From Thermococcus kodakarensis KOD1 (GTDB lineage Archaea; Methanobacteriota_B; Thermococci; Thermococcales; Thermococcaceae), in contig NC_006624.1 of the NCBI RefSeq assembly GCF_000009965.1, positions 870,001 to 902,000 of the forward strand: a DNA stretch of 32,000 nt, in the 5' to 3' direction. Below are positions 8,651 through 31,701 of this stretch, piece after piece. The position numbers and the translations under genes are program-made. The notes under the pieces were generated by a model. That model was not told the origin of the DNA. It saw only the letters and a list, made by a program, of their open reading frames with translations, and did no database searches. Each line of letters opens with the position of its first letter. Position 1 is the first letter of the stretch.

Positions 8651-8967
8651 TTCAACCACCGGAGTAAGTCCGGGGCGGTGCTTTTAAGATTTTAGCTTAA
8701 ACTAGCAACTCAAATCGCATGACAGAGAGCAGTCTAAAATGGCTCCCGTCAACCATCTACTCATGACATTGTTTCCCATCTCATTATTACTGACTGATGT
8801 TGATAGGAATCATTCCTCTCGTTCAGAGACCATATTTTTGCCATAGCAAAGACAATCGAGCTTAAATCCTTCAGAAAGCAAAAGATATGCTGTTAATCAG
8901 CGCAGCAAAGTTTATAAACCCTTTAGCTCCACATCTGACGCCCCTCGTAGGAGGGGAGGTGGTCGGT

Positions 8968-9183
8968 ATGTACTACCCACCCAGGAAGAAGGTCCAGCCC
9001 AAGAAGGTTGAGGAAGAAGAGGAAGAGGACTTCGAGCCCCTCGAAGCAGTCGAAGAAGCCTACGAGAACTGGGACGAAGAAGAGTTTGGCGAGGACTGGG
9101 AAGAAGAGGAAGAGTGGGACGAGGACTGGGAGGACGAAGAAGACTGGGATGAGGACTGGGAAGAAGACGAGGATGACTACTGA
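8968..9183 (+). CDS. Small hyper-acidic Trp/Asp/Glu-repeat protein with short basic N-terminus
   Basis: ATG 8968 is preceded by the strong ribosome-binding site GGAGGGGAGGTGG, and a TATA-like TTTATAAA lies about 50 nt upstream. The product is MYYPPRKKVQPKKVEEEEEEDFEPLEAVEEAYENWDEEEFGEDWEEEEEWDEDWEDEEDWDEDWEEDEDDY. Confidence 0.6.
   Translation: MYYPPRKKVQPKKVEEEEEEDFEPLEAVEEAYENWDEEEFGEDWEEEEEWDEDWEDEEDWDEDWEEDEDDY
9091..9180 (+). repeat. Three tandem 30-bp coding repeats (GAGGACTGGGA... at 9091, 9121, 9151)
   Basis: Direct reading shows GAGGACTGGGA recurring with an exact 30-nt period. The units encode EDWEEEEEWD / EDWEDEEDWD / EDWEEDEDDY. Confidence 0.85.
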
Positions 9184-10506: not shown

Positions 10507-11652
10507 GTGATGACCGTGTTCTGGCTCAAGACGAGGATAAGTGAGGGGGAGGACTCACTAGAGAGCCTCAAGGACGAGGCCAAGGATCACGAACGGGTTC
10601 TCATACTGGCATCTGGTTCTATGAAGAGGCACGGCTTTCTAAGCGAGGCCGAGGACTACGTTAGGGAAGCCGGAGCAGAGGTTATGAGTATATCAGGACT
10701 TCCGGCGGAGCCGAGCGTTGAGGTCATTGAGGAGTTCCTGCCGAAGGTTAGGGAGTTTGGGCCCGATCTCCTCATAGCCATGGGCGGCGGCAGCGTTATC
10801 GACACGACCAAAGCCCTCAAGGTCTTCTACGATGCCCCCGAGCTCGTCTTTGAGGAGATAGCCTTCATCAACCGTTTCTCAAGGCCGAAGCCCGTTCCAA
10901 AACTAAAAACTCCCCTCATCGCGATTCCCTCAACGAGCGGAGCTGGAAGCGAGGTTTCCGCGGCCAGTGTCCTGAAGAAGAACGGGATAAAGTACAACAT
11001 CGTAACGCCGGAGATAGCACCTGAGGTAGCTATTCTCGACCCGAGGCTCCCGAGGACTATGCCAAGGGAAGTTGCGAGGAATTCTGGCCTGGATGTCCTC
11101 GTCCACGGTATAGAGGCTTACACAACTAAGGTCGCTGGGCCCTTCAGCGATGCGATGGCGATAAGGGCGATAAAGACCGTCTTCGAGTGGCTTCCGAAGT
11201 CGGTTGAAGGTGACCCCGAGGCGAGGGCAAGAATGCACTACGCGGCAACGATGGCAGGGATAGCCTTTCTCAATGCCAGGCTTGGTTTGGCCCACGCGAT
11301 GAGCCACAAGGCGGCATGGGTAGGTCCCCATGGCTTACTCAACGCGATATTCATACCCTACGTGATGGAGTTCAACGCCGAGAGGAGTGAGTATGCGAGG
11401 AAGCGCTATGCTGAGATAGCGCGCGAACTTGGGTTGAAGAGTGCTGAAGAGCTGATAAAAGCCGTCAGAGAGCTCAACGAGCGCCTTGGAGTTCCAAAGC
11501 TAAGCGAGCTTGTTGATGAAGAGACTTTTGTTGAAAGGGTTGAGGAGATGGCTGAAAAGGCCTACCGCGACGGGCTGATAGCGTTCAACCCCGTTGAACC
11601 AAAGCCAGAGGAGATAAGAGAGCTTTATCTGAAGGCTTTGAACGCGTTATAG
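10507..11652 (+). CDS. Iron-containing (group III) alcohol dehydrogenase
   Basis: It has GGGSVIDTTKA and the metal-binding His motifs (LVHGIEAY, LAHAMSHK), at 381 aa. The start could be GTG 10507 or ATG 10510. Confidence 0.9.
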   Translation: MMTVFWLKTRISEGEDSLESLKDEAKDHERVLILASGSMKRHGFLSEAEDYVREAGAEVMSISGLPAEPSVEVIEEFLPKVREFGPDLLIAMGGGSVIDTTKALKVFYDAPELVFEEIAFINRFSRPKPVPKLKTPLIAIPSTSGAGSEVSAASVLKKNGIKYNIVTPEIAPEVAILDPRLPRTMPREVARNSGLDVLVHGIEAYTTKVAGPFSDAMAIRAIKTVFEWLPKSVEGDPEARARMHYAATMAGIAFLNARLGLAHAMSHKAAWVGPHGLLNAIFIPYVMEFNAERSEYARKRYAEIARELGLKSAEELIKAVRELNERLGVPKLSELVDEETFVERVEEMAEKAYRDGLIAFNPVEPKPEEIRELYLKALNAL

Positions 11653-11698
11653 ATTCAGATTTAATTTTCTTCAGTTTCGATAACAGGGCAAATCAAGG

Positions 11699-11741
11699 AT
11701 AAATTTTAAATTTTAAATCATATTGAACAGGAATTGGAGGT
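11699..11741 (+). promoter_or_regulatory. Candidate TATA/BRE region and ribosome-binding site for the McrB-like gene
   Basis: GATAAATTTTAAATTTTAAATCA (tandem AAATTTT) lies about 35-50 nt upstream of ATG 11751. GGAGGT at 11736-11741 lies 9 nt upstream of that ATG. Confidence 0.35.
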
Positions 11742-11750
11742 TGATAACAA

Positions 11751-14237
11751 ATGAATCAATCAGTTATAATAGATGGAAAAAGATATGGCGTTGAAGGGCA
11801 CATAAAAAATATTGTAATTTCACCAGATTCGCGATATTTATTAGTAGAGGAAGGAGAACATGAAACTTTTTCTAAGTTGCACTTATACGAGATACACGAT
11901 AATGGGATTAAAAGAGTCTTTGACCCTATACTAAAAAACGAAAAGGGGGTATTTTATTCTTTTGTAGGGGGAGGTAAATTTATAGTCTCATATATTCCAT
12001 CCAACAGATTTTTCATCTATGATTTCATTGACAAAGACTACAATGAGCTGTATTTTACCAATATGGGCAAAATATTCTTTAGGCCAACAGTCCCAGATCA
12101 CAAAATTGTCGTCATATATGCCCCAAGTGGTGCATTATTCCCTCATAGAAATAGGAAATATGTGAATTTAATCCAAGAAATAAATTTCAATCAATATATC
12201 GGTGAGTACAAGTACTATTTGGAAAAAGTCCCAAATACCATTGTCTCACTACGAGATGGAAGCTTTTATCTACCTGTGATAGTAAAAACCCAAGATACTG
12301 GAAAAAAACAACTTATGATTCTAAGATCTACCCAAAATAAACAACAACCTCTTCGGATAATTGATATCAATGATCACGATATAGATTTCAAAGACTGGGA
12401 CATTCAGTATTATCACGAGAATGACAACGAACTGATAATTGGAGCTGTTAATTTATCTTTTAAGAACACACTTCTTGTATATATTATCAATCTTGTTGGA
12501 GAACCTAAAGTATCATCTTTTGATATTGAGTATCAAGGGAAAATTAAGTATGTAAAAATGACAAATAAAAATCTGTATTTAGTCTATGTTGACTCCCAAG
12601 ACGAAAAATATTTGCTACAAATTCCAAATAAGGAACTAGTAGATTATATTAGACATTCTAAAACATCAATTACATTAGATACGAGATTAGAAAAATACAT
12701 AAAAGCGTCCTTAAAAGAATACAATATTACAATCCCTGATGATGAGAAACTTTCAATTTTATGGAGCTGGAATACGCCTAAAATAATAATCACTCCAATT
12801 TCTGAACTTTTAAGTGCTCCAGTAGATTATATAGAAAATTATCAAATAGTAGAGAACAGTGAATTCACAAACTATTCTAGCACCAATCAAACCAATCAAA
12901 ACAGTAGTAGTTCTTATAAACATGACATAAGTAATAAAAATAGTAACGGTGGATATTGCAACGAGGATAAGATAAGCACTATCCAAGTTCTTTTAGATGA
13001 ATACAAGCAAGTTATCTTATATGGACCACCAGGAACAGGAAAAACATTTATGGCCCGAATGTTTTTGAGATGTATTAATGTACCCAATACACACTACTCT
13101 TTTGTTACATTCCATAAGTCATATAGCTACGAGGATTTTGTCGAAGGGTATCGCCCACTCACTCGCGAAGGTAAAATAGAATATGCTGTAAAAGATGGCA
13201 TATTCAAAAAACTCGCAATTAAAGCTATTTATGAACTCATGTCAGACACTATCAAAGAACAATTATTACCCAACTATGAAACACAAATAGAAAATCATGC
13301 TAAAAAGATTGCTTGGGAACGCCTAATTTCAGACTTGAAAGCTAATCGTATAATCCGGAATGATATTCGGGTTGACGACAAAGGAAGAATGTATGTTGCT
13401 GAATATACCATATATGATGGGGACGATCTAATAACAAAAGCAGAGAAGCTTAGAGAGCTTCTTGGTGATTTAGAATCAATTTTCATGACATATAAAGAAG
13501 AAGCTGAATATGAGGGCGTTAAGTTCCTCGTTCAGAGATTTCTTGGAATTCTAGATTCAAAAATTTCAAATGGTGCTCTTAGCACAGAGGACATCAATAA
13601 CTTATTCACTAACAACCCCAAGAAATTTTATTTGGTTATAGACGAAATTAATAGAGCAGATGTTAGTCATGTTTTTGGTGAGTTGATAACTCTTCTTGAA
13701 AAAGATAAGAGAATTAGCGAGGACAACAAAAATCCCATAATAGTCCAACTGCCCTACTCCAGAGAGCTTTTTGCAGTACCCAGCAATCTCTACATAATCG
13801 GAACCATGAATTCCGCGGATAGGGGAATATCCCTATTAGATGTAGCACTAAGACGGAGATTTGCATTTTTGGAAGTACAACCAGACTATAATGTGCTGGA
13901 AGAATTAAATCTCTATGGGATAAGAATCGACAAGTTGCTCAAAGCAATAAATGACAGGATAATTCACTCAAAAGGCAGCAAAGACTATCAAATAGGGCAC
14001 TCTTATTTCCTTGAACTTAAAGAAGCGTTATCAAATGGAAATGAGGATGATGCCCTGCAAAAACTCATACGTATATGGTATAACAGGATACTTCCATTAC
14101 TTCAAGACTATTATTACTCAAGATGGGATGAACTAGATATGCCTGAATTTATAGATGGCACAGGGCAAATAAATTTCGAACTAATGAAATCTCCAGAGAG
14201 GTTCATTGAAGCTCTGAGAGGTATATTGGGAGAATAA
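11751..14237 (+). CDS. McrB-family AAA+ GTPase with a large non-canonical N-terminal domain
   Basis: It has Walker A GPPGTGKT (13023-13046) and the McrB hallmark FHKSYSYEDFVEGYRP. Walker B and the following segment read LVIDEINRADVSHVFGELITLLEKDKR (D at 13641). The McrB signature is IIGTMNSADRGISLLDVALRRRFAF. The N-terminal 370 aa or so is beta-rich with no family I recognise. Confidence 0.85.
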   Translation: MNQSVIIDGKRYGVEGHIKNIVISPDSRYLLVEEGEHETFSKLHLYEIHDNGIKRVFDPILKNEKGVFYSFVGGGKFIVSYIPSNRFFIYDFIDKDYNELYFTNMGKIFFRPTVPDHKIVVIYAPSGALFPHRNRKYVNLIQEINFNQYIGEYKYYLEKVPNTIVSLRDGSFYLPVIVKTQDTGKKQLMILRSTQNKQQPLRIIDINDHDIDFKDWDIQYYHENDNELIIGAVNLSFKNTLLVYIINLVGEPKVSSFDIEYQGKIKYVKMTNKNLYLVYVDSQDEKYLLQIPNKELVDYIRHSKTSITLDTRLEKYIKASLKEYNITIPDDEKLSILWSWNTPKIIITPISELLSAPVDYIENYQIVENSEFTNYSSTNQTNQNSSSSYKHDISNKNSNGGYCNEDKISTIQVLLDEYKQVILYGPPGTGKTFMARMFLRCINVPNTHYSFVTFHKSYSYEDFVEGYRPLTREGKIEYAVKDGIFKKLAIKAIYELMSDTIKEQLLPNYETQIENHAKKIAWERLISDLKANRIIRNDIRVDDKGRMYVAEYTIYDGDDLITKAEKLRELLGDLESIFMTYKEEAEYEGVKFLVQRFLGILDSKISNGALSTEDINNLFTNNPKKFYLVIDEINRADVSHVFGELITLLEKDKRISEDNKNPIIVQLPYSRELFAVPSNLYIIGTMNSADRGISLLDVALRRRFAFLEVQPDYNVLEELNLYGIRIDKLLKAINDRIIHSKGSKDYQIGHSYFLELKEALSNGNEDDALQKLIRIWYNRILPLLQDYYYSRWDELDMPEFIDGTGQINFELMKSPERFIEALRGILGE

Positions 14238-14265
14238 ATATTCATCAAATAATAGGTGGAAGAAC

Positions 14266-15669
14266 ATGGATCACATCTACATCTATGTGCCAGAGCATTC
14301 TATAGACAAGAGGCCATGGAATCTTCCTGAAATACCATCCGAGCTAGTTAATAGCAGAGAATTTCAAAAGTTTGTAGAGCAGATAAACAATTCATATTTC
14401 GATCCAGTATTAGTTATAAAGCACAACAGGCTCGCCGCAGGACCCTATGTTGGGTTCGTTTTATATAAAGACAAAACTTCTGGAAAGATACACCAAATCA
14501 ACATTTATCCAAAAATCTTTCTGGGTGGGCTATCCTCAGAAGATAGCTGGAAAATAGTACTAAAAATCGCAGACTTATACTACAACTTAGGTTTAAGAGA
14601 GTATGATATAAAGACAGCTCTTGCAACTGAAGGGAATTCACCTTTCATTGATATTCTCTTGGATATCTTTTCAAATAGACTACTTAATGAGCTCCGATTT
14701 GGTATTTATGGAGAATTTGTATCTACTGAGGAAACTTCTTCGTCCTTGCGAGGCCAATTATTAGTAGAAAGAGAAATATTGAAATTGCCAACCCAGAAGC
14801 ACAAATTTGATATTAGATATAAAAAATTTACCGTAGACAACTTTCTTAATAGGGTTTTTAAGTATACCTTATACTTAGGGCTACAACATACTAACAGAAG
14901 AGAAACAAAAAGAACATTATCAGAAGCATGGGATATGTTAAAAGAAGTATCCTTAACACCGATATCAGTTGATTCCATAGAAAAATTAACACTAAACTCC
15001 TTAAATCTTAGATTTGAACTTCCCTTGAAGTTAGCAAAAATAATAATATCAGGATTAGATTATCAGAAAGGCCTAATCTCCCCAGGATTTATTATACCTA
15101 TGCCAGATGCCTTCGAGTTTTTTGTATATAAATTGCTCAGAGCCATTCTTGGGAAAGATTATAGAGTACGATATCATCCTCAGAATAGAGAATTCGTTCT
15201 GGAAACACCTAGAAAATTCATTGAGAACCCACCACAGCCAGACATTATTATAGAATCAAGCTCTGGACAGCCTTTAGTCGTGGTAGATGCAAAATACAAA
15301 ACGCTATACTGTCCTAAATGTGGAGAAAAACAGAGATACGTCAAGAATTCCAGTGATTTATATCAAATATATTCTTACACTAAATTATATAATGCTCATG
15401 CAGGTGTTCTCGTATATCCCATGCTGAAAGATTATAGTCAGGGTTCAGGGTATAATCAATATAATCAATGGCTTTGTGATATATCCTCGATATCCACCTG
15501 TAAAAATTCGATATTTCATTTTTTCGATAAAACTAAGTTGGGGATTTTAGGAATAAATCTTGCACACCTTATTAGGGACTCAATAGAAGTCTCTAGTGGT
15601 AATATAACAAAAATTAACCCCAAAATAAAAGAACAGTTAATTTCTTATCTAAATTCGCTAATAAACTAG
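14266..15669 (+). CDS. McrC-like PD-(D/E)xK nuclease subunit
   Basis: It lies immediately downstream of the McrB-like gene, with a GGTGGA ribosome-binding site. It has the nuclease core PDIIIESSSGQPLVVVDAKYK (D 15241, D-A-K 15286-15294) followed by SDLYQIYSY, which matches the McrC D...(D/E)xK...QxxxY arrangement. Confidence 0.75.
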   Translation: MDHIYIYVPEHSIDKRPWNLPEIPSELVNSREFQKFVEQINNSYFDPVLVIKHNRLAAGPYVGFVLYKDKTSGKIHQINIYPKIFLGGLSSEDSWKIVLKIADLYYNLGLREYDIKTALATEGNSPFIDILLDIFSNRLLNELRFGIYGEFVSTEETSSSLRGQLLVEREILKLPTQKHKFDIRYKKFTVDNFLNRVFKYTLYLGLQHTNRRETKRTLSEAWDMLKEVSLTPISVDSIEKLTLNSLNLRFELPLKLAKIIISGLDYQKGLISPGFIIPMPDAFEFFVYKLLRAILGKDYRVRYHPQNREFVLETPRKFIENPPQPDIIIESSSGQPLVVVDAKYKTLYCPKCGEKQRYVKNSSDLYQIYSYTKLYNAHAGVLVYPMLKDYSQGSGYNQYNQWLCDISSISTCKNSIFHFFDKTKLGILGINLAHLIRDSIEVSSGNITKINPKIKEQLISYLNSLIN

Positions 15670-15691
15670 GCTCAGGAAATAAATAAAAACT

Positions 15692-17176
15692 TTAAGAGAC
15701 CATAATTTCCTTTTCTCCCCCCTCCTCCACCTCGCGTATCTTTCCGCCCTTCATGACCTCAACGATGGCAAATGCCAGCAGGGCCAGGAGGAGATAGACC
15801 ACCGACGCTCCCCCAAAGAGCACTTCGTAGGCCTTTTCCGTCGGAATCTTGATCTGAACGAAGGCCGGTGCTCCAGGCGGGTGGAAGAGGACGTAGTAGG
15901 TGCTCATTACCGTTCCAGCTATTGCCGGCCCCCAGGTCGAGCCGAAGTTCCTGAAGAGGCTGTTGGAGCCTGTGGCGACACCCATCATTCTCGGCGGCAC
16001 TGAGAAGACCAGCACGTTGATGAGGGATATGTTCATGAGGTTTATGCCTATTCCAACGACGGTCATCATCGTCACGAACTGCCAGAGAGACATCTTCGTT
16101 GCGTAGAGGGACATTACCGCGAGGGCACCGCTTCCGATGAGGGCACCTGCTATCGCTATCGGCTTCGCCCCGATCTTCGGCATGAACTTTCCGGCGAGAG
16201 GGGCGACGATGAGCATAACGAGGGCCATTGGGGTCATGAGCAAGCCGCTCTGGAGTATCGTCTTTCCGAAGCCGTAGGGTTCCGGCATCTGGAGGAGGTA
16301 AGTGTTCGCCTGGCTCATCATTGAGAGGCCAAAAGCCGCTAACATTATGCCCAGATTGGCTATTGCGGGGTTCCTTGAGGAGATTATCTTAAGCGGCAGC
16401 AACGGGTTTTCCACTCTCCTCTCCCAGAGGACGAGGAGTACCGCGCCAATTACACCAACTCCAAAGAGGATTAAGGTTTCCTTCGCAGTCCAGCCGACGT
16501 TTGGTGCCCTTGTGACTGCCACGAGCATTGGCACCACGAAGAGAGTAAGGAGAACCGCTCCAACTCAGTCAACCTTTCCAGGATTTACATAGCGGCTCTC
16601 CCTGAGTATTTTCCAGGCGAGGAAGAACATCAGCACGGCGAAGGGAGCCGCCGAGTGGTACGTCCAGCGCCACCCGTAGTTCTCTGTGACCCATGCACCC
16701 AGGGGGAGTGCTATGACCATTCCAACCGCGAACATGGCGCTTATCATTCCCTGGACCTGCGGCACCATGCTCGGAGGGAACTCCTCACGGACGAGGGAGA
16801 ACGCCAGCGGGAAGATCGCCATTCCAAAGCCCTGGATTGCTCTCGTAACGAGAAGCCTCTGGAAGCTTGGAGCAAAGCCGTTGAGAATGACGCCAAGAGT
16901 GTAAAAGCCGAGCGCTATGAGGAACATCTTCTTTTTCCCGTACATATCGCCGAGCTTTCCGAAGAGGGCAACGCTGACGGTTCCAACGAGGAGGTAAATG
17001 GTCAGAACCCAGCTGACGTCGTTGGGGTTTATCGCGAACTCCTTCTGGATCGTTGGCAGAGCTGGAGTCAGCATCGCCTCGGTGTACATGACGAGGAGCG
17101 GGAGAAGAACGACAACGAACATCGCCTTCTTTGCATAGGATAAGTCGTAGGTCTCACCCTTCTCGACTACCTGCAT
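15692..17176 (-). pseudogene. MFS drug/H+ antiporter (DHA2/EmrB-QacA-like, 14-TM type) interrupted by one in-frame TGA
   Basis: Listed ORFs 16565..17176 and 15692..16537 are in the same frame, separated by 27 nt. The only interruption is TGA (plus-strand TCA at 16565-16567). Read-through gives ...RYVNPGKVD*VGAVLLTLFVVPMLVAVT..., a continuous transporter of about 494 codons. Confidence 0.8.
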
Positions 17177-17281
17177 TTTTCACCACCGACCTATCGAACG
17201 ATATATCACTTATAAAGCTAGCGGTGGTCTCCAGTAAGGGTTATAATAGGGAGAAGCAATGTTTTACTGAGGGTGTGGAGG

Positions 17282-17485
17282 ATGGAGAAAATAGTCCGCG
17301 GCGTTTATCGCTCGGGTGAGATTATCTTACTTGACGAGACAGAGCTTCATGAGGGCGAGATTATTAAGGTAAAGCTTGTTGGGAGGAAAGAACTCGTGGA
17401 TAAGCTTGCAGGCGTGCTAGGGAAGGGAAAGCCAGAGGACCTCGAAAGATACCTTGAGGAGATGTACTATGAGGGTTCTCCTTGA
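17282..17485 (+). CDS. Small antitoxin-like protein (DUF104/AF2212-like) paired with a PIN toxin
   Basis: MEKIVRGVYRSGEIILLDETELHEGEIIKVKLV resembles the archaeal DUF104 antitoxin-family N-terminus. Its 3' end overlaps the PIN gene start. GGTGTGGAGG precedes ATG 17282. Confidence 0.6.
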   Translation: MEKIVRGVYRSGEIILLDETELHEGEIIKVKLVGRKELVDKLAGVLGKGKPEDLERYLEEMYYEGSP

Positions 17486-17918
17486 CACGAACGTTCTCTA
17501 CAACTTTCTCTTTGAGACGCCCCTCACGGAAAGCTCTAAAAGTCTTCTGTCTGAGCCTTACGAATTCTACGTTAGCACTCTGATTCTTAACGAGCTATCT
17601 TACTCAGTCATCCGGAGAAAGGCGGAAACAGCCTTTGAAATACATTCATACAGAAAACTCAAGGAGTTTCTCAACAAGAACGGTTACAAACCTTTTCAAA
17701 GAGAGTTACGGCTCATGGAATCTGCAATAGAAGGACTTGGGATAATCAAGGTTAATGATTCACAGAACTGGGAGCTTATACGAGAACTCATGTTTAGGTA
17801 TTCTCTCCTTCCGAGTGACGCCACCATTTTGGCAACCGCCATCGAAAACGGGATTGAAGCCCTCGCCACTTTCGATAGGGACTACAGCAAAGTTCAAGAA
17901 CTCAAAATCATTCCTTAA
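17469..17918 (+). CDS. PIN-domain ribonuclease toxin (VapC-type)
   Basis: It has MRVLLDTNVLYNFLF, a mid-protein LNELSY and a C-terminal PSDATILATA...TFDRDY, giving the PIN acidic residues. It overlaps the upstream small gene by 17 nt. Confidence 0.8.
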   Translation: MRVLLDTNVLYNFLFETPLTESSKSLLSEPYEFYVSTLILNELSYSVIRRKAETAFEIHSYRKLKEFLNKNGYKPFQRELRLMESAIEGLGIIKVNDSQNWELIRELMFRYSLLPSDATILATAIENGIEALATFDRDYSKVQELKIIP

Positions 17919-30408: not shown

Positions 30409-31701
30409 TCAAGTTTTCGAGTTCCGGATTTTTGCCACTAAGCTCAACGGCAGCAGTGACAGCAACGCCAGAACTCCAACTCCACATATACCCTCATTCT
30501 TGGACGTTGATGAACTACTGCTTTCAGTCTTCTTGGTCGTGGAGCTGGAGTAATCAGTGTAATTCGTCTCCCTGGGAGTGGAAGTTGTAGAAGATTCAGA
30601 AGATTCCACAGTCCAGTTCTCGTGAACCGCCGGACAGGAACAGCAGTGAACGTCCCGGTATTTGACGGGAGCAGGAATAACCGTTACCCCCTCCTCGGAC
30701 ACGTGAATCAGCGGGAGTTCTCTAAGGGTGTTGTTCTCGTAGAGGTATATTGAAACGTTCATCGGTCTCGGAGGGTATTTTTTAGTAAGGTACGGGGGGC
30801 TAAATATGAATCTATAATCTCCGCTGTGAAACGTGTAGTTATCCTCCACCCACATGCTCCCGTTGAAATAGGCTATCCCTCTCCCAGGAGGCACGATCAA
30901 AAGTCCATCTCCCATGGTTATCGCACAGGAGTCGTTGACCGGCTGAAGTCTTGACTTCAACTCTTCCTCCAAGGGGATTCTGTACTTTGACGAAACGACG
31001 ATCCAGTCACCCTCAATTTTCAGGGGCAGACACTTCCGGTTCCTGAGAGTGAAGAAATCAAACGGTAGCAAGTTATGCAACCAGGCATCGTAAGGGCTGA
31101 ACTTGTCCTCAAGGCTCAAGTTCTTCTCGTTCCCAACGGCCACCAACTTAATGGATTCATCCACCCTGTACAGGCTTCTGTTTCCTATGGGATACTCGTA
31201 AATCAGAACGTAAGGCATTGAAATGTTAAGATCCCCCTGCTGGGGCACTTCTCCAATCTTCTGGATTGCACCGTTGCAGTAGCGGATTACCGTTAAATGA
31301 TCAGCGCAGGGAGGATGCTTCATTGGAAAACTCGTGTTGGTGGAGGCTGGAAGGAAAAGATACAGCCAGCCCTTATAAAAAGCCAGGGGTGGCAGCTCGA
31401 ACCCCGAAAAAGCCATGTAATCAACGTAGTAGGCACCGCTCTCATTGACATAGAAGATGAAATAAGTCCAAAGGTCAATGGGCATGAGAGTTACGGGGTC
31501 GTACTCTGTAGTGAGACCGGCTTCTTCGTAATAATCGTATTCGACTCCCACAAGGGCTCCTTTGGAGTCAGCGTAGATCACGAAGGGCTGGAGCGAAATC
31601 CCCCAGGGATAGTTGGAGTACTCCTGGGCGGATACATTCTGGAGGGACAAGACAAGAAGAAGGAAAATGGAAAGCGCTCCAGCTGGCTTTAGCTTAGACA
31701 T
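30409..31701 (-). CDS. Secreted, heavily N-glycosylation-sequon-rich surface protein with Ser/Thr linker and CGP-CTERM-like anchor
   Basis: The N-terminal signal peptide is MSKLKPAGALSIFLLLVLSLQNVSAQE. More than 10 N-x-S/T sequons are present. The C-terminus has a Ser/Thr-rich tract (SSESSTTSTPRETNYTDYSSSTTKKTESSSSSTSK), then CGVGVLALLSLLPLSLVAKIRNSKT (Cys-Gly, TM helix, basic tail). Confidence 0.7.
   Translation of the reverse strand: MSKLKPAGALSIFLLLVLSLQNVSAQEYSNYPWGISLQPFVIYADSKGALVGVEYDYYEEAGLTTEYDPVTLMPIDLWTYFIFYVNESGAYYVDYMAFSGFELPPLAFYKGWLYLFLPASTNTSFPMKHPPCADHLTVIRYCNGAIQKIGEVPQQGDLNISMPYVLIYEYPIGNRSLYRVDESIKLVAVGNEKNLSLEDKFSPYDAWLHNLLPFDFFTLRNRKCLPLKIEGDWIVVSSKYRIPLEEELKSRLQPVNDSCAITMGDGLLIVPPGRGIAYFNGSMWVEDNYTFHSGDYRFIFSPPYLTKKYPPRPMNVSIYLYENNTLRELPLIHVSEEGVTVIPAPVKYRDVHCCSCPAVHENWTVESSESSTTSTPRETNYTDYSSSTTKKTESSSSSTSKNEGICGVGVLALLSLLPLSLVAKIRNSKT

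Follow-up and report, generated by a model that had tools for sequence, protein, structure and literature searches.

The McrB protein encoded in the window, by which we mean the whole stretch of 32,000 nucleotides (nt) analysed here (NC_006624.1, positions 870,001 to 902,000), carries a large N-terminal domain (N-domain) that is predicted to fold as a beta-propeller. Because this domain is placed exactly where every characterised McrB has its DNA target-recognition domain, we infer that it probably represents the specificity module on a canonical McrBC nuclease, with some feature of invading DNA as its most likely target. McrBC is the archetype of modification-dependent restriction, in which the N-domain of McrB sets the target entirely. 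Up to now, the N-domains that have been studied are all small readers of nucleic acids, and the literature describes DUF3578/ADAM, YTH/EVE and B3-type modules only. A propeller on McrB is not mentioned in PMC13385129, in a 2025 review, in the Chappie-lab papers or in the McrBC census paper and its available supplements, where the terms 'propeller' and 'WD40' are likewise absent. According to the structural models, a large beta-propeller at the N-terminus of McrB would represent an undescribed class of module, which seems to be recurrent in Thermococcales including T. kodakarensis.

A predicted propeller fold

Residues 1-373 are without match in Pfam, NCBIfam, PADLOC and PHROGs, and nothing was retrieved from the complete set of PDB sequences by profile search at E<=10. 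When the N-domain and three of its homologues were compared with Pfam at E<=10, only noise was obtained (Ig_NUP210, Telomerase_RBD, DUF5711, KOW6) and no PD40, YVTN or WD40 repeat profile was matched. The profile self-alignment of the N-domain gave no signal of internal sequence repeats either. The sole likeness of this kind is the blade-1 motif I..ISPDSRY, which by eye resembles SPDG-type blades. Hence, the PD40/YVTN flavour that had been attributed to this region in the original prediction, made from the sequence alone, holds at the level of the general fold only.

The structure prediction was more informative. An AlphaFold2 model built on an alignment of four sequences reached a predicted template-modelling score (pTM) of 0.82 and a mean predicted local distance difference test (pLDDT) of 78. 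It contains short helices and 29 beta-strands of 3-10 residues, which fit seven blades of four strands each with a possible N-terminal 'velcro' strand (E5-8). Residues 150-350 were modelled with pLDDT >85, residues 40-140 with pLDDT 55-80. Using this model, Foldseek found 97 matches in the PDB at E<=1e-3, and the top 50 are all beta-propellers with a probability of 1.0 and E values down to 5e-7. The matched propellers belong to Sec12, SCAP-WD40, prolyl oligopeptidase and DPP-IV, the clathrin N-terminal domain (NTD), Cdh1/Cdc20, Nup133 and sialidases; their template-modelling scores (TM-scores) amount to 0.4-0.5 at 7-14% identity. The top matches among viral proteins in BFVD are likewise all beta-propellers, and no DUF3578, YTH/EVE, SRA or B3 fold occurred among the Foldseek matches. 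The model therefore predicts a propeller as fold class, with a generic similarity that points to no specific family. In this respect the earlier description of an McrB homologue with a beta-rich, propeller-like N-terminus different from the known McrB reader folds has been borne out by Pfam, NCBIfam, PADLOC, PDB profile and fold searches, and all six peptides quoted in its support are present at the implied positions of the open reading frame.

Relatives of the N-domain and their divergence

When 1.84 billion representatives were scanned exhaustively with the N-domain in HMMER, three matches were obtained, namely an McrB of 825 amino acids (aa) with 57% identity over the N-domain (P0001) and two short fragments (P0002, P0003). 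Searching with the whole protein added three further sequences (P0004, P0005, P0006). P0005 shows 28% identity over residues 89-347 (E 2e-13), while P0006 is collinear with about 24% identity and has the motifs IKxxxISPxxxY and KYYLxKV in common with the window protein. The apparent N-terminal truncation of P0005 is due to a late gene call (~80 codons), since the missing blades are found in frame upstream together with a GTG start and a GGAGG ribosome-binding site at L001:7761 (L001 7761-8000); the 'truncated' N-domains of this family in databases may be start-codon artefacts. P0004, from a Logan contig of 3453 nt, is 100% identical to the window McrB up to residue ~706 and continues with a frameshifted tail (…RRRFAFWKYNQTIMCWKN). 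A public read set thus contains the same strain or gene, and the tail is either genuinely frameshifted or a product of misassembly. The two fragments, which correspond to window aa 43-136 (P0002) and 312-364 (P0003), are near-identical to the window protein with many changes of S->F/L, P->L and T->I, and this C->T pattern suggests that they are not real variants but stem from reads of DNA that had been damaged or treated with bisulfite, from a strain identical or very close to that of the window.

In P0001, P0005 and P0006, as in every complete member, the McrB is followed by McrC. A fusion of the N-domain to another effector, for which the original prediction had suggested looking, was not seen in the exhaustive scan, nor was a stand-alone form. 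The scan of genome contigs with the N-domain gave nothing, and the scans of metagenomes and viruses with the alignment gave the P0001 contig alone or nothing. Word-indexed searches, for which the N-domain was used by itself or as profile, were also empty, but these results were regarded as false negatives of the prefilter and given no weight, because P0004 and P0001 are both included in that database.

The N-domain has diverged faster than the remaining protein. Its identity to the window sequence is 54.5% in P0001, 29.6% in P0005 and 24.1% in P0006, compared with 74.7%, 64.5% and 55.2%, respectively, for the motor. Expressed as nonsynonymous divergence (dN), the propeller reached 0.34, 0.83 and 0.91 against 0.16, 0.31 and 0.41 for the motor, which is 2.1-2.7 times higher. 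Nevertheless, the N-domain is constrained, because the proportion of nonsynonymous differences to the closest relative (L002) is well below that of synonymous ones (pN 0.27 vs pS 0.79). The synonymous divergence (dS) is saturated, and a high divergence is likewise seen in the flanks (pS 0.64-0.68). The sequence comparisons indicate that the propeller is under purifying selection yet evolves faster than any other part of the cassette, which would be expected of a specificity or sensor module, and it appears to form a small, fast-diverging, very rare family confined to McrB proteins.

The hidden Markov model (HMM) of the N-domain additionally gave weak matches, at the same N-terminal offset, in seven McrB proteins of ~700-716 aa including those of T. 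kodakarensis, T. siculi and Thermococcus sp. MV11. In McrBs of this T. kodakarensis type the N-region is unannotated and the Walker A motif is situated at about residue 400. The N-region was modelled by AlphaFold2 as an all-beta structure with an N-terminal helix (pLDDT 89, pTM 0.87, five models 86-89), for which Foldseek returned propellers exclusively. A first hhalign run aligned the two N-domain families over 81 columns with a probability of 35%. With refined alignments they became collinear over 297 columns (score 38.9, E 2.4e-4, probability 44%, ~16% identity), whereas the controls scored 20.5 (best blade-shifted), 15.7 (reversed) and <=19.8 (20 column shuffles). Both families have in common a blade-1 motif I..ISPxGxY, DFxDWD or EFWDG, respectively, and ISxDG in the last blade; the HMM of either family did not retrieve the other at E<=1e-3. 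The window N-domain is probably a distant homologue of the T. kodakarensis-type N-domain, as judged from these alignments. The T. kodakarensis protein (P0025) is BAD84984.1/Q5JH85, and its locus has the gene order Topo VI B/A, DUF530, DUF1699, McrB, McrC. It should correspond to TK0795/TK0794, with gene numbers derived from the accession offset and the gene order.

What the propeller may recognise

As a specificity module, six propellers would decorate the McrB hexamer in a similar way as the N-domains of T. gammatolerans McrB (TgMcrB) at the edge of the ring, and would capture the target, for which some feature of the invading DNA is the best candidate. The finger of McrC would stimulate the GTPase ring, the ring would then reel in the DNA, and the PD-(D/E)xK nuclease of McrC would cut it. 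A DNA target seems no less likely than a protein trigger, because the probably related TK0794-TK0795 system restricts incoming plasmid DNA. In a 2026 study, the deletion of TK0794-TK0795 ('McrBC1') raised the transformation with autonomous plasmids, the trends among strains were 'relatively similar' with dam+/dcm+ and dam-/dcm- plasmid, and genomic 5-methylcytosine (m5C) in T. kodakarensis was below detection (PMC13385129). The system is treated there as a generic m5C-dependent McrBC and its N-domain is not described. The similar trends would fit a trigger different from Dam/Dcm methylation, without proving it. It might even be, though we advance this tentatively and with considerable doubt, that the propeller-type McrBCs of Thermococcales are not modification-dependent at all and that the propeller recognises a non-canonical base as is typical of archaeal viruses, a protein of viral or plasmid origin, or else a structure or an end in DNA.

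Several points weigh against a specificity module for DNA. The homology to the T. kodakarensis family is probable rather than certain (hhalign probability 35-44%, E 2-4e-4), and the T. kodakarensis phenotype stems from an operon deletion, which says nothing on the role of the N-domain. Moreover, the deletion strain has a growth defect hinting at other roles of the system (PMC13385129). The N-domain and its relatives are mildly acidic (isoelectric point 5.1-6.2, net charge -2 to -13), a rough assignment of the loops revealed no obviously basic face on the N-domain, and the acidic propeller CJ1041C did not bind DNA (PMC13578688). Finally, the blade number and the closure of the ring were read from the strand list alone, and the model, with its four sequences and the lower pLDDT of 55-80 around residues 40-140, came from five models that span 62-78.

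Alternatively, the propeller might serve as a protein sensor that binds a viral or plasmid-encoded protein and thereby licenses indiscriminate DNA cutting by McrBC. Such a system would be activated by its trigger and would not depend on DNA modification, as the original prediction had implied. This proposal agrees with the fact that propellers are mostly platforms for proteins or ligands, as are all structural neighbours of the N-domain (Sec12, clathrin NTD, Cdc20/Cdh1, Nup133, peptidase propellers), with the acidic character of the domain, and with its fast divergence, which is expected of a sensor in an arms race. Beta-propellers are also said to be predicted invader sensors in MoxR conflict systems. 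We nevertheless regard a protein sensor as unlikely. DNA binding is common to all characterised McrB N-domains, and naked plasmid DNA brought in by transformation is restricted by the probably related T. kodakarensis system in the absence of a virus. In addition, the exhaustive scan gave neither a stand-alone form of the domain nor a fusion to a different effector.

Still less probable is a role of the propeller as structural or regulatory appendage, involved in assembly, auto-inhibition, localisation or the recruitment of a host factor, with target contact being made elsewhere, for example by the insert of ~125 aa in the GTPase domain. Inserts in the McrB GTPase domain are frequent and may encode specificity domains according to the McrBC census paper, and the AAA+ domain of the window protein indeed holds an enlarged one; the growth defect of the T. 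kodakarensis McrBC deletion could also be taken as a sign of roles beyond defence. However, the insert is well conserved among the McrB relatives of the window protein and the propeller is the fast-evolving part, and the position and tethering of the propeller mirror those of known specificity domains. That the propeller arose as an artefact of modelling, with the region in reality being another or partly disordered beta-rich fold or a divergent PUA/EVE/SRA-like reader missed by profiles, is hardly credible: the small alignment, the uneven confidence over residues 40-140, TM-scores of 0.4-0.5 to real propellers and the missing internal repeats speak for it, but they are opposed by the overall pTM and the well-modelled residues 150-350, by the independent model of the sister family with high confidence in all five models and matches to propellers alone, by a strand count of about 28-29 that equals seven blades of four strands, and by a size of 370 aa, two to three times that of any PUA, SRA or DUF3578 reader.

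The McrBC of T. kodakarensis with the predicted propeller is a practical barrier to transformation in a genetic model, and the target of the propeller would explain what these hyperthermophiles restrict. If the propeller reads something other than a methylated base, such systems would form a branch of McrBC immunity with a mechanism of its own, where the hypervariable propeller acts as trigger and the conserved GTPase-nuclease as effector. As for applications, archaea could become easier to manipulate genetically, and motor-driven nucleases would gain a recognition scaffold that is thermostable and possibly programmable.

The restriction cassette and related systems

The mcrB gene belongs to a sharply bounded low-GC cassette of 4 kb, the features of which are compiled in Table 1. 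The expression signals listed there were obtained from direct reading of the sequence and a tandem-repeat finder, and their function as promoter is inferred.

Table 1. Position of the McrBC cassette and its features in the window
Feature	Position	Strand	Description and basis
Low-GC cassette (about 34%) with exactly two genes	11653..15691		Between Fe-alcohol dehydrogenase stop and MFS transporter stop; GC profile and empty-site comparison
Putative expression signals	11700..11741	+	TATA-like A/T-rich tract TAAATTT x2.7 (11700-11718); GGAGGT ribosome-binding site (11736-11741), 9 nt before ATG
McrB open reading frame	11751-14237	+	828 aa; ATG start
McrB residues 1-373, predicted seven-bladed beta-propeller, putative target-sensing domain	11751..12869	+	AlphaFold2 and Foldseek
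Asn/Ser/Gln/Thr-rich low-complexity tether, residues 374-401	12870..12953	+	Sequence NYSSTNQTNQNSSSSYKHDISNKNSNGG; lineage-specific
McrB AAA+ GTPase, residues 402-828	12954..14237	+	Motifs and family matches; McrB lid after signature motif
Enlarged intra-AAA+ segment, ~125 aa (aa ~495-620)	13233..13610	+	Before Walker B; ~70 aa longer than the 57-aa TgMcrB equivalent
McrC, 467 aa	14266-15669	+	Starts 28 nt past mcrB stop; DUF2357 finger and PD-(D/E)xK nuclease

The GTPase half of McrB contains Walker A (GPPGTGKT, aa 425-432, nt 13023-13046), Walker B (LVIDE, aa 628-632, nt 13632-13646) and the signature motif MNxxDR as MNSADR, which replaces sensor I and has its NxxD at N687-D690 (nt 13809-13820). 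It matches AAA_5 in Pfam with E 4e-20. The NCBIfam McrB model was found with E 4.5e-40, yet the score of 137.7 bits stays below the equivalog cut-off of 637 bits because the N-terminus differs. PF20030 bpMoxR matched the P-loop alone (E 0.06). The closest solved motor is TgMcrB (6ut3/6ut5, E 4e-70), followed by E. coli McrB (6hz4, E 2e-39), and the intra-AAA+ segment is defined by the gap in the alignment to 6ut5, where query positions 9-94 correspond to 200-289 and 220-342 to 346-465. McrC covers positions 3-318 of the 318 in PF10117 (E 4e-85), matches the NCBIfam McrC model (E 3e-19) and has an intact nuclease motif (...PD...VVVDAKYK, with D341-A-K343 at nt 15286-15294). The intact motifs of McrB and the complete McrC with its nuclease motif suggest that the system is functional. 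As a separate observation, a single CPKC motif (…YKTLYCPKCGEKQRY…) follows right behind the catalytic DAK of McrC (15310-15330, aa 349-356), with a weak zinc-finger-like match (E 0.2).

The GC profile of the cassette runs at 0.26-0.39 compared to 0.52-0.60 on either side and is back up at 15700, with ~52% GC for the chromosome. Core genes are found upstream (ArsA, PurA, epimerase, MFS transporter, Fe-alcohol dehydrogenase) as well as downstream (MFS transporter, AF2212/PIN pair, Lhr, SMC/ScpA, Hef), and with such neighbours the cassette as a piece of a larger defence island was rejected. The nearest orthologues of the alcohol dehydrogenase (ADH) have 66-90% identity and are all from Thermococcus or Thermococcaceae genomes. 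In nine Thermococcaceae genomes (L008-L016) the site is empty, i.e. the ADH gene is directly followed by the convergent MFS gene, whereas an McrBC cassette occupies this same junction in the window, in L001 (ERR2021999) and in L002. All cassettes at the junction have 34-37% GC between flanks of ~50% GC. At the insertion junctions no target-site duplication, direct repeat or other repeat was found. The 3' end of the ADH gene is rewritten differently in each cassette-bearing genome, to KALNAL* in the window (11620-11652), AFLI* in L001 (7600-7638) and AYKYLET* in L002 (350-390), while the empty sites keep the ending …A(F/Y)(Y/R)G(K/E)*. The McrBC restriction cassette at this locus is self-contained, was acquired horizontally and can be described as Type IV-like and GTP-driven. 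Its shared site could reflect either an ancient insertion and vertical inheritance with losses or a repeated replacement of alleles, given the saturated dS and the high divergence of the flanks.

The tether between propeller and motor had been pointed out in the original prediction as an Asn/Ser/Gln-rich tract unusual for an extreme thermophile. It is indeed present, with 29% Ser, 25% Asn and 20 of its 28 residues being Asn, Ser, Gln or Thr, and its count of Asn plus Gln (9) is the maximum in the window. The significance attached to it was not confirmed, since the underlying DNA bears signatures of slippage (a 9-nt duplication, ACCAATCAA x2, giving TNQTNQ, and AGT x3) and the tract does not occur in P0001, P0005 and P0006, which have different, shorter or acidic linkers. 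Most plausibly, the tract arose by slippage in the AT-rich acquired DNA, has been tolerated and serves as flexible tether; on the same grounds, an adaptive or prion-like feature was rejected. A Ser/Thr-rich stretch with 19 of 28 residues being Asn, Ser, Gln or Thr also exists near aa 372 of a 430-aa open reading frame (30409-31701, - strand) without Pfam match at E<=1e-5, hence such tracts are not unique to the acquired cassette.

A few observations were made in the surroundings. The MFS transporter gene 3' of the cassette (15692-17176, - strand) has an in-frame stop (…PGKVD*VGAVLL…, near 16538-16567) that splits it into open reading frames of 203 and 281 aa, and its L001 orthologue is a single gene of 497 aa. 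Either a pseudogene or an error of sequencing beside the insertion may account for this. The AF2212-like/PIN (VapBC-type) pair between the MFS and Lhr genes varies among syntenic genomes (window 17273-17918; L001 13250-14364; L008 ~13870-14040): the PIN gene of L001 is on the opposite strand, L008 has 42% identity, and the pair is absent from several genomes. It looks like a second small variable spot adjoining the McrBC site. Furthermore, a 98-aa open reading frame just 5' of the first MFS gene (8887-9183, + strand) ends in an extremely acidic tail of Trp/Asp/Glu repeats (…EEEEEEDFEPLE…WDEEEFGEDWEEEEEWDEDWEDEEDWDEDWEEDEDDY).

Among the known systems, the McrBC of T. gammatolerans (PDB 6UT3-6UT8) has the same two-gene mcrB-mcrC operon in the same archaeal order and identical Walker A/B, MNxxDR and RRRF motifs. 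It differs at the N-terminus, where TgMcrB has a YTH domain reading DNA with N6-methyladenine and an AAA+ domain starting at residue ~185-200 of 613, whereas the window McrB has the predicted propeller of 373 aa. The N-domains of TgMcrB are located at the ring edge and the linker to the YTH domain has 7 aa (Chappie-lab papers), so that the tether length represents a real contrast, with 28 aa in the low-complexity part alone of the window protein. The determinants of GTP specificity and of McrC-stimulated hydrolysis lie in the divergent N-linker. The McrBC of E. coli K-12 belongs to the same family and mechanism class (GTP-specific AAA+ hexamer, activation by the McrC finger, PD-(D/E)xK nuclease). 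Its N-domain is a small DUF3578/ADAM reader that flips out m5C or 5-hydroxymethylcytosine, and the N-terminus of the window protein is without similarity to it. A predicted propeller N-region and an adjacent McrC are likewise present in TK0794-TK0795 and the orthologues from T. siculi, T. stetteri, T. peptonophilus and Thermococcus sp. MV11. The TK0795 type is distinguished from the window McrB by an additional N-terminal helix, a different chromosomal locus and the lack of the Asn/Ser tether.

Beyond McrBC, eukaryotic DDB2 is an example of a DNA-binding beta-propeller. The propeller YncE of E. coli, as reported in PMC13578688 with citation of Kagawa 2011, binds DNA via basic patches and illustrates that a seven-bladed propeller can serve DNA recognition. 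Neither YncE nor DDB2 has a sequence relationship to the window N-domain or is fused to a motor nuclease, and the pronounced basic patches of YncE differ from the net acidic window N-domain. MoxR proteins are kin to McrB within the AAA+ ATPases. According to Kaur et al. 2020 (PMC7159879), the MoxR-vWA-beta-propeller ternary conflict systems combine an AAA+ ATPase and a propeller in predicted anti-invader systems, as is the case here. In those systems the propeller is a separate protein that is accompanied by a vWA partner and other effectors, whereas in the window it is fused to McrB and cooperates, as we propose, with McrC.

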